Below, in pieces: positions 24,019 to 24,342 of a stretch of 26,066 nt of DNA. Where the stretch lies: assembly GCF_003334255.1 (NCBI RefSeq), contig NZ_QOWU01000064.1; one strand, written 5' to 3'. Origin of the DNA: Escherichia coli. Its GTDB lineage: Bacteria > Pseudomonadota > Gammaproteobacteria > Enterobacterales > Enterobacteriaceae. Below the pieces are notes generated by a model. That model saw only the letters and a program-made list of their open reading frames with translations, ran no database searches and was not told where the DNA came from. Each line of letters starts with the position of its first letter. Positions within the stretch are counted from its first letter, which is position 1. The position numbers and the translations under genes were made by a program.

Positions 24019-24342
24019 TTGCGTATTCTTTTTGTCTGTTCGCTATTGTTACTTTCTGGATGCAGCCATATGGCTAACGATAGCTGGAGCGGGCAGGATA
24101 AAGCTCAACACTTTATCGCCTCGGCGATGCTTTCCGCCGCCGGAAATGAATATTCACAGCATCAGGGGATGAGCCGGGATCGCAGTGCCATGTTTGGATT
24201 GATGTTCTCTGTCAGTTTGGGGGCGTCAAAAGAGCTTTGGGATAGCCGCCCCGAAGGGAGCGGCTGGAGCTGGAAGGATTTGGCCTGGGATGTCGCCGGT
24301 GCAAGCACCGGCTATACCGTCTGGCAACTGACCCGTCACTAA
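24019..24342 (+). CDS. yfiM: Small lipoprotein YfiM
   Basis: 107 aa from TTG 24019 ([18 protein letters not shown]...); GGAGG SD 7 nt upstream; lipobox LLSGC. The ORF-track start at 23998 lies inside the pssA terminator hairpin. Confidence 0.8.

Follow-up and report, generated by a model that had tools for sequence, protein, structure and literature searches.

The closest described relatives of YfiM belong to the Lipocone superfamily, which includes VanZ, TelC, PTDSS and Wnt proteins and in which a 2025 paper placed YfiM as part of a family named YfiM-1 (Burroughs, Nicastro and Aravind, eLife RP108061). Lipocones were predicted in that paper to be enzymes acting on lipid head groups, with an active site consisting of a His in helix H2, a Glu in H3, an acidic residue at the end of H3, and an Asp, a polar residue and a Gly in H4; these conserved residues were mapped to the active sites of TelC and PTDSS1/2. 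YfiM-1 was described as a minimal four-helix domain, the genes trxC, tapT, patZ, pssA and yfiM were treated as one operon, and YfiM-1 was proposed to exchange the serine head group made by PssA (eLife RP108061).

The Escherichia coli gene, its TTG start and its lipoprotein prediction are already known, the standard E. coli annotation having carried the TTG start and the lipobox from 2005 onwards. PMC2850352, citing PMC1325200, states that the 2005 K-12 annotation snapshot moved the yfiM start upstream by 17 residues and that this extension made YfiM a predicted lipoprotein. The same family appears as NF008028 in NCBIfam, as YFIM_ECOLI in UniProt and as DUF2279 (PF10043) in Pfam, and the protein analysed here does not differ from it, aligning over its full length and lying at the same locus.

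Identity and gene order of the yfiM locus

The window analysed is a stretch of 26,066 nucleotides of the E. coli chromosome. A 551-nt stretch around yfiM was found in all 5426 of 5426 complete E. coli genomes, in several of them with 100% identity. We took the gene order from a RefSeq genome that is identical to the window over the stretches compared. It reads, on one strand, trxC (18626-19045), tapT (19114-19812), patZ (19844-22504), pssA and yfiM, beyond which lie the convergent kgtP and then a 5S rRNA gene (Table 1); this is the same neighbourhood that the Lipocone paper describes for YfiM-1. The initial annotation had named the gene yfiM, and the RefSeq/PGAP record gives the same coordinates for a 'YfiM family lipoprotein' (WP_001300818.1). 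The product matches the NCBIfam equivalog 'YfiM family lipoprotein' (NF008028) with 194.8 bits against a cut-off of 117, residues 1-105 covering positions 1-105 of the 106 in the profile, and its residues 24-100 match Pfam DUF2279 (E = 1.3e-9). Compared with other E. coli alleles, that of the window carries a few substitutions, all of them outside the conserved motifs.

Table 1. Features in and around yfiM, in window coordinates
Feature	Position	Strand	Evidence
pssA, phosphatidylserine synthase, directly upstream of yfiM	22618..23973	+	RefSeq annotation
pssA intrinsic-terminator hairpin, 8-bp stem, 5-nt loop	23978..23998	+	terminator scan; -12.5 kcal/mol, z = -2.3
Terminator T-run TGTTTTTT, abutting the yfiM ribosome-binding site	23999..24006	+	sequence; arrangement kept in species alignment A3
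Shine-Dalgarno GGAGG, 7-nt spacer (24012-24018) to the start	24007..24011	+	sequence
TTG start codon of yfiM	24019..24021	+	RefSeq CDS start; homologous codon is the start in 81 loci
yfiM CDS, 107 codons plus TAA (24340-24342)	24019..24342	+	sequence, NCBIfam NF008028, Pfam DUF2279, dN/dS
Predicted type II signal peptide, residues 1-14 (n-region R2, core I3-L12)	24019..24060	+	hydropathy, fast evolution
Lipobox L12-S13-G14-C15; Cys15 (24061-24063) is the predicted acylation and cleavage site	24052..24063	+	sequence, conservation
D27-K28-A-Q-H31 motif, start of first mature helix (26-48), Lipocone H2 His	24097..24111	+	130 homologues, AlphaFold2
K71-E72-L-W-D75 motif, end of second mature helix (53-75), Lipocone H3 Glu and terminal acidic residue	24229..24243	+	130 homologues, AlphaFold2
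D87...D91...G94, start of third mature helix (85-106), Lipocone H4 Asp, polar residue and Gly	24277..24300	+	alignments A2/A4, AlphaFold2
Tail-to-tail overlap: yfiM ...CAC TAA, kgtP CTA (TAG on the - strand, 24339-24341)	24339..24342	.	sequence, annotation
kgtP, alpha-ketoglutarate permease, convergent neighbour	24339..25637	-	RefSeq annotation

The mechanical list of open reading frames adds one codon to pssA (GTG 22615 ahead of ATG 22618) and 34 codons to kgtP (TTG 25739 against the annotated start at 25637). Two small genes, shoB for a type I toxin (8-88, minus strand) and rseD for the rpoE leader peptide (9900-10055, minus strand), are also annotated within the window in the matching RefSeq record.

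Start codon usage across Enterobacteriaceae

TTG starts make up a few percent of E. coli genes. The initial annotation had held that TTG 24019 is the only start of yfiM with Shine-Dalgarno support, and examination of the other in-frame starts agrees with it. TTG 23998 falls within the terminator stem and T-run, which leave no spacing for a ribosome-binding site, and no usable Shine-Dalgarno sequence precedes either TTG 24046, within the hydrophobic core of the signal peptide, or ATG 24070 (codon 18), downstream of the lipobox.

We fetched 80 species-level Enterobacteriaceae loci, located the lipobox Cys in each, and counted start codons over 81 loci. The codon homologous to the yfiM TTG is the start codon in 81/81 (ATG in 57, GTG in 18 and TTG in 6, the last all from Escherichia), and it lies 14 or 15 codons upstream of the lipobox Cys. 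Nearly all orthologues have an Arg or Lys codon after the start, most loci have a GGAG-type motif 5-7 nt ahead of it, and the 41 nt around the E. coli start (23996 to 24036) are identical in 5341 of the 5426 complete genomes. On these comparative grounds we hold it very probable that yfiM is a real, strongly conserved gene and that it is translated from TTG 24019. What the comparison adds to existing annotation is a shift of the start codon from ATG through GTG to TTG across the family.

Spacer length varies within the genus. In E. coli and Escherichia MOD1-EC7003 (L004) the Shine-Dalgarno sequence is followed, ahead of the TTG, by two additional T (GTTTTG versus GTTG), and the spacer measures 7 nt; in E. 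albertii, E. whittamii and two further lineages of the genus the two T are absent and the spacer measures 5 nt.

Signal peptide and predicted lipidation

The product contains the lipobox reported in the initial annotation, L-S-G-C at residues 12-15, and its Cys is kept in 81/81 species, across which the pattern is [LI][STAGCP][GA]C. The classical lipoprotein signal rule (PROSITE PS51257) asks for a positive charge among the first 7 residues and a short uncharged hydrophobic core ahead of a lipobox [LVI][ASTVI][GAS]C whose Cys falls at about residue 15-35. YfiM matches this rule with Arg2, the core I3-L12 and Cys15. At the +2 position after the lipobox Cys we counted Ser in 73 species, Ala in 4, Thr in 3, Cys in 1 and Asp in none; by the sorting rule Asp at +2 retains a lipoprotein in the inner membrane, and for the Ser of E. 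coli YfiM the rule predicts the outer membrane. Residues 1-19 are the only part of the protein to reach a transmembrane-like Kyte-Doolittle hydropathy (1.61), and the hydrophobic core within them is about 10 residues long. The signal region diverges rapidly, with dN of 0.3-0.75 once species outside Escherichia are compared; the mature part, in contrast, is constrained (dN/dS 0.03-0.14).

More distant homologues were collected by a scan of 1.84 billion representative proteins, which gave 1465 clusters at E <= 0.001. Of 116 full-length distant homologues, about half carry a lipobox and the others an AxA-type signal peptide, and linkers of 6 to >50 residues precede the conserved W-x-G-x-D-K-x-x-H-F segment in distant homologues.

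These features make it highly likely, in our judgement, that YfiM is a lipoprotein. Following the sequence rules, the 107-residue prolipoprotein would be exported, diacylglycerylated on Cys15 and cut before Cys15 by signal peptidase II. Since residue +2 is Ser, the Lol system would probably then carry the mature protein to the outer membrane and place it on the inner face, the +2 rule being the evidence for this placement. N-terminal proteomics would be blind to the start codon because signal peptidase II would remove the first 14 residues and the new N-terminus would be acylated. YfiM resembles CyoA-type and ordinary Lol-sorted E. coli lipoproteins in its n-region Arg, short core, L-S-G-C and Cys15; it differs from them in being among the smallest predicted in E. 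coli and entirely helical, with lipidation and sorting that are predicted.

Predicted structure and conserved residues of the mature domain

The AlphaFold2 model of the YfiM precursor has helices at residues 2-12 (pLDDT 78-80), 26-48, 53-75 and 85-106, with a mean pLDDT of 92.9, and the model of the 93-residue mature form has the same last three helices (pLDDT 92.8). The best 19-residue hydropathy window in the mature protein scores 0.86, compared with about 1.6 for membrane helices. In 130 diverse homologues (approximately 30% identity), of which 71 match Pfam DUF2279 at E <= 0.001, residues D27, K28, H31, K71, E72, D75 and G94 are invariant; W23, G68, S84, D87 and G98 are nearly invariant, and Asp is in the majority at position 91. 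For D87 the near-invariance refers to alignment A2; in alignment A4 it is invariant. Judging from the up-down-up order of the helices, the polar residues, which occupy the N-terminal ends of the first and third mature helices and the C-terminal end of the second, would cluster at the lipid-anchor end of the bundle.

One apparent E. coli allele departs from this pattern with D27A and H31D (P0003, MSL95094.1, the representative of a 90% cluster). Its exact sequence occurs on a single 2.9-kb contig, and we set it aside as a singleton or error, or a rare variant.

E. coli YfiM shares with Lipocone YfiM-1 the His (H31), the Glu (E72), the acidic residue at the end of H3 (D75), and the Asp (D87) and Gly (G94) of H4, and enterobacterial YfiM sequences are present in the YfiM-1 data file of the Lipocone paper. 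The difference lies in the published four-helix core: in the model H1 coincides with the signal peptide, and the mature form would have three helices. The reading of the first core helix as a cleavable signal peptide in YfiM goes beyond current annotation.

Some relatives, for example P0150, P0152, P0160, P0168, P0177 and P0178, carry a pair of Cys residues. The first of the pair lies in the loop between mature helices 1 and 2, in the motif [DE]-C-[DES]-A, and the second at the very C-terminus, in the motif ...C-[HR]. The two co-occur in about 18 of the 130 relatives (raw count 21, a few of them spurious; Fisher p = 3e-10, relatedness uncorrected). Because the order of the helices puts both positions at the same end of the bundle, the pair suggests a disulfide at the far end and hence a periplasmic location; E. 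coli YfiM has neither Cys. A membrane-spanning topology of the mature helices was rejected on hydropathy, on the alternation of signal types among relatives and on the Cys pair. We consider it likely that mature YfiM is a periplasmic, non-transmembrane domain, and the models would give it the form of a compact bundle of three helices (Table 1) that is not an integral membrane protein.

Relationship to VanZ and other Lipocones

VanZ proteins cross the membrane several times by means of hydrophobic helices, unlike YfiM, which is predicted to be lipid-anchored and whose mature helices are not transmembrane-like. The NCBIfam VanZ profile (NF037970) gave 16.7 bits over residues 27-95 of YfiM, a span that covers the three mature helices, which is below its cut-off of 20, and a search with the Pfam VanZ profile (PF04892) gave no match for E. 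coli YfiM. Among the 130 relatives, 8 match Pfam VanZ at E <= 0.001, and one relative scores just above the NCBIfam VanZ cut-off. Fold matches of YfiM in AFDB50 grade from YfiM lipoproteins into proteins annotated with a 'VanZ-like domain'. By these results YfiM is a relative of VanZ, through a similarity that can be seen but is weak, and not a member of that family. Our fold and sequence similarity searches gave no direct link from YfiM to characterised TelC, PTDSS1/2 or Wnt proteins; for the connection to TelC and PTDSS1/2 we draw on the published searches (eLife RP108061).

Transcription of yfiM and the link to pssA

As the initial annotation had proposed, yfiM follows a pssA terminator, for which the terminator scan found both hairpin and T-run. 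Across 78 species 96.2% of cells in the hairpin alignment are paired and 5 of the 8 pairs show compensatory changes, compared with 36-61% for slid controls. The presence of this conserved terminator between pssA and yfiM is a further point beyond existing annotation, and it divides pssA from yfiM where the Lipocone paper has all five genes in one operon.

A scan of the plus strand from 23500 to 24800 found no sigma-70-like promoter, and a yfiM promoter between pssA and yfiM or in the 3' end of pssA was therefore discarded as a candidate. Since the T-run abuts the ribosome-binding site, leaving no space for a promoter between the two, and no promoter-like site was found in this range, we infer that yfiM is transcribed only by read-through, and its transcripts would have to pass through the pssA terminator. 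Expression would probably be low, given read-through, a weak start codon and an antisense kgtP transcript.

Two further candidate elements were dismissed. Searched for an RNA element in or around yfiM, the stretch 23700-24700 gave no Rfam match at E <= 1. Sequestration of the Shine-Dalgarno sequence by the last pssA codons was considered since, in the minimum-energy fold, the yfiM ribosome-binding site GGAGGC pairs with GCC...TCC of those codons around the terminator hairpin (23966-24012), and the potential for this pairing (the TCC:GGA helix) is kept at 90.9%. There are no compensatory changes in this helix, the 91-nt fold is not unusual (z = -1.1), and coding and ribosome-binding constraints explain the pairing. 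Translational coupling through the same pairing between the ribosome-binding site and pssA was noted as a candidate.

PssA homologues are the immediate upstream neighbours of YfiM homologues with 58%, 45% and 42% identity; more distant YfiM homologues sit elsewhere and have no PssA directly upstream. The full trxC-tapT-patZ-pssA-yfiM neighbourhood was found only in Enterobacterales-like contexts. The adjacency of pssA and yfiM supports some functional link between the two, although the conserved terminator weakens the argument for it from a single operon. TrxC, TapT and PatZ have separately characterised functions; in view of these, of the pssA-yfiM terminator and of the few taxa in which the cluster occurs, it is doubtful that the five genes form one operon serving one pathway. 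In one distant homologue with a context unlike that of pssA (P0148, L086 1082-2091), the gene overlaps by 4 nt the end of a LOG/'Lysine_decarbox' and SLOG-cluster4 gene.

Convergent overlap with kgtP

The initial annotation had also described a convergent overlap with kgtP, and the two genes do have 4 nt in common. We compared this arrangement in 79 loci, those in which a downstream convergent ORF was called, nearly all of KgtP type by their C-terminus. A 4-nt overlap of the yfiM/kgtP type is present in 50 of the 79 and a gap of 1-7 nt in 25 more, so that 75/79 overlap or nearly touch. A minus-strand terminator scan within yfiM found no terminator-like site. The 3' ends of yfiM and kgtP leave no room for separate terminators, as in an excludon, which is consistent with the listing of yfiM-kgtP among excludons detected by RNA-seq (PMC12288877). 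The convergent kgtP transcript would have no room to stop before running antisense into yfiM.

Two recent methods papers put synthetic operons into a 'yfiM-kgtP intergenic region' as a high-expression site. Because the stop codons overlap by 4 nt and there is no such intergenic region, an operon placed there must change either the 3' end or the antisense surroundings of yfiM, of kgtP or of both.

Alternative explanations

Two alternatives concern the N-terminus. Translation from ATG 24070 (codon 18) would yield a cytoplasmic protein of 90 residues, which is how the gene was first annotated in K-12. In favour of this start, ATG is the canonical codon, the pre-2005 K-12 annotation used it, and some gene callers still output 'MANDSW...' products (P0122, P0125, P0130). 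However, this ATG has no Shine-Dalgarno sequence at a useful distance, Met18 is replaced by Leu, Thr, Ile, Val or His in other species, a start codon that is conserved and a lipobox that is conserved throughout lie in the 17 codons upstream, and the annotation was corrected in 2005. We regard this start as extremely improbable, and the comparison of species already refutes it in effect. With translation from TTG 24019, the N-terminal segment could still remain uncleaved and serve as H1 of a four-helix Lipocone integral to the inner membrane, as in VanZ proteins. The four-helix description of YfiM-1 implies as much, and the data file of the Lipocone paper counts the N-terminal segment of enterobacterial YfiM within the domain; residues 2-12 are helical in the AlphaFold2 model, the first approximately 40 positions of the VanZ_1 profile align to the N-terminal region of one relative (P0202), and R2, R52/R54 and R106 are compatible with a positive-inside topology. 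Against an H1 of this kind, the hydrophobic core of about 10 residues is too short for a bilayer, and the next three helices are far under transmembrane hydropathy. The segment evolves fast while the remainder is under strong constraint, its lipobox Cys is invariant in 81 species, and relatives replace it by AxA-type signal peptides with linkers of 6 to >50 residues. Its pLDDT is lower than that of the other three helices, which are predicted equally well without it, and the distal Cys pair in relatives suggests a periplasmic disulfide. An uncleaved H1 is in our view quite improbable, and a cleaved signal peptide ahead of a periplasmic domain is the reading that we prefer.

The other alternative concerns function. 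The initial annotation had called YfiM poorly characterised and of unknown function, which still holds for experiments: a literature search returned no experimental report of the YfiM protein, its lipidation, location or activity. For computation it no longer holds, as a specific assignment to YfiM-1 of the Lipocones has existed since 2025. The mature domain would thus represent the YfiM-1 branch of the VanZ-related Lipocone superfamily and, by homology, would most likely bind a membrane lipid and cleave or exchange its phosphate-linked head group, in a reaction resembling that of phospholipase D or a base exchange, or that of a polyprenyl-phosphate esterase. Catalysis on a lipid head group is suggested by remote homology, and we propose it tentatively, as a plausible activity that falls somewhat short of probable. 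YfiM might instead be a lipoprotein of Lipocone fold without enzymatic activity, in which the polar cluster is a binding site for a partner protein, a metal or a lipid head group. Its part in the envelope would then be structural or sensory, like that of the non-catalytic Lipocones Wnt and SAA. Non-catalytic members do exist in the superfamily (eLife RP108061), the literature searched held no activity for any YfiM or VanZ protein, and the only yfiM knockout phenotype reported is mild (small lambda plaques, with wild-type-like infection dynamics). However, an invariant His, an invariant Glu and two or three Asp in 130 sequences at approximately 30% identity are typical of catalytic sites, and these residues match those mapped to the active sites of TelC and PTDSS1/2 (eLife RP108061). 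We find a purely non-enzymatic role unlikely, if less so than the alternatives at the N-terminus.

Implications

We moderately favour the explanation as a whole, in which yfiM encodes a TTG-started exported lipoprotein with a three-helix periplasmic Lipocone domain and a probably low level of expression. The TTG start and lipobox matter little in themselves; they are correct but ordinary, the gene being annotated already and its start codon belonging to a common minority type. The residual interest is in the protein, which is universal in the E. coli genomes searched, is under strong purifying selection, has an invariant His/Glu/Asp cluster and adjoins the essential pssA. If the head-group chemistry is real, YfiM would be one more enzyme in the envelope lipid pathways of enterobacteria and a small soluble model for the VanZ/Lipocone superfamily.

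A more speculative model, which we think distinctly unlikely, would have YfiM work as an open three-helix half-cone. H1 would be sacrificed as the signal peptide, the protein's own three acyl chains would keep the half-cone at the membrane surface, and the place of H1 would be filled by these chains or by the substrate lipid. Working from the periplasm, the half-cone would remodel the head groups of phospholipids, such as those of the outer membrane's inner leaflet, with its supply tied to pssA read-through and damped by the TTG start and antisense kgtP transcription. If this were true, YfiM would represent a previously unrecognised periplasmic step of enterobacterial phospholipid metabolism.
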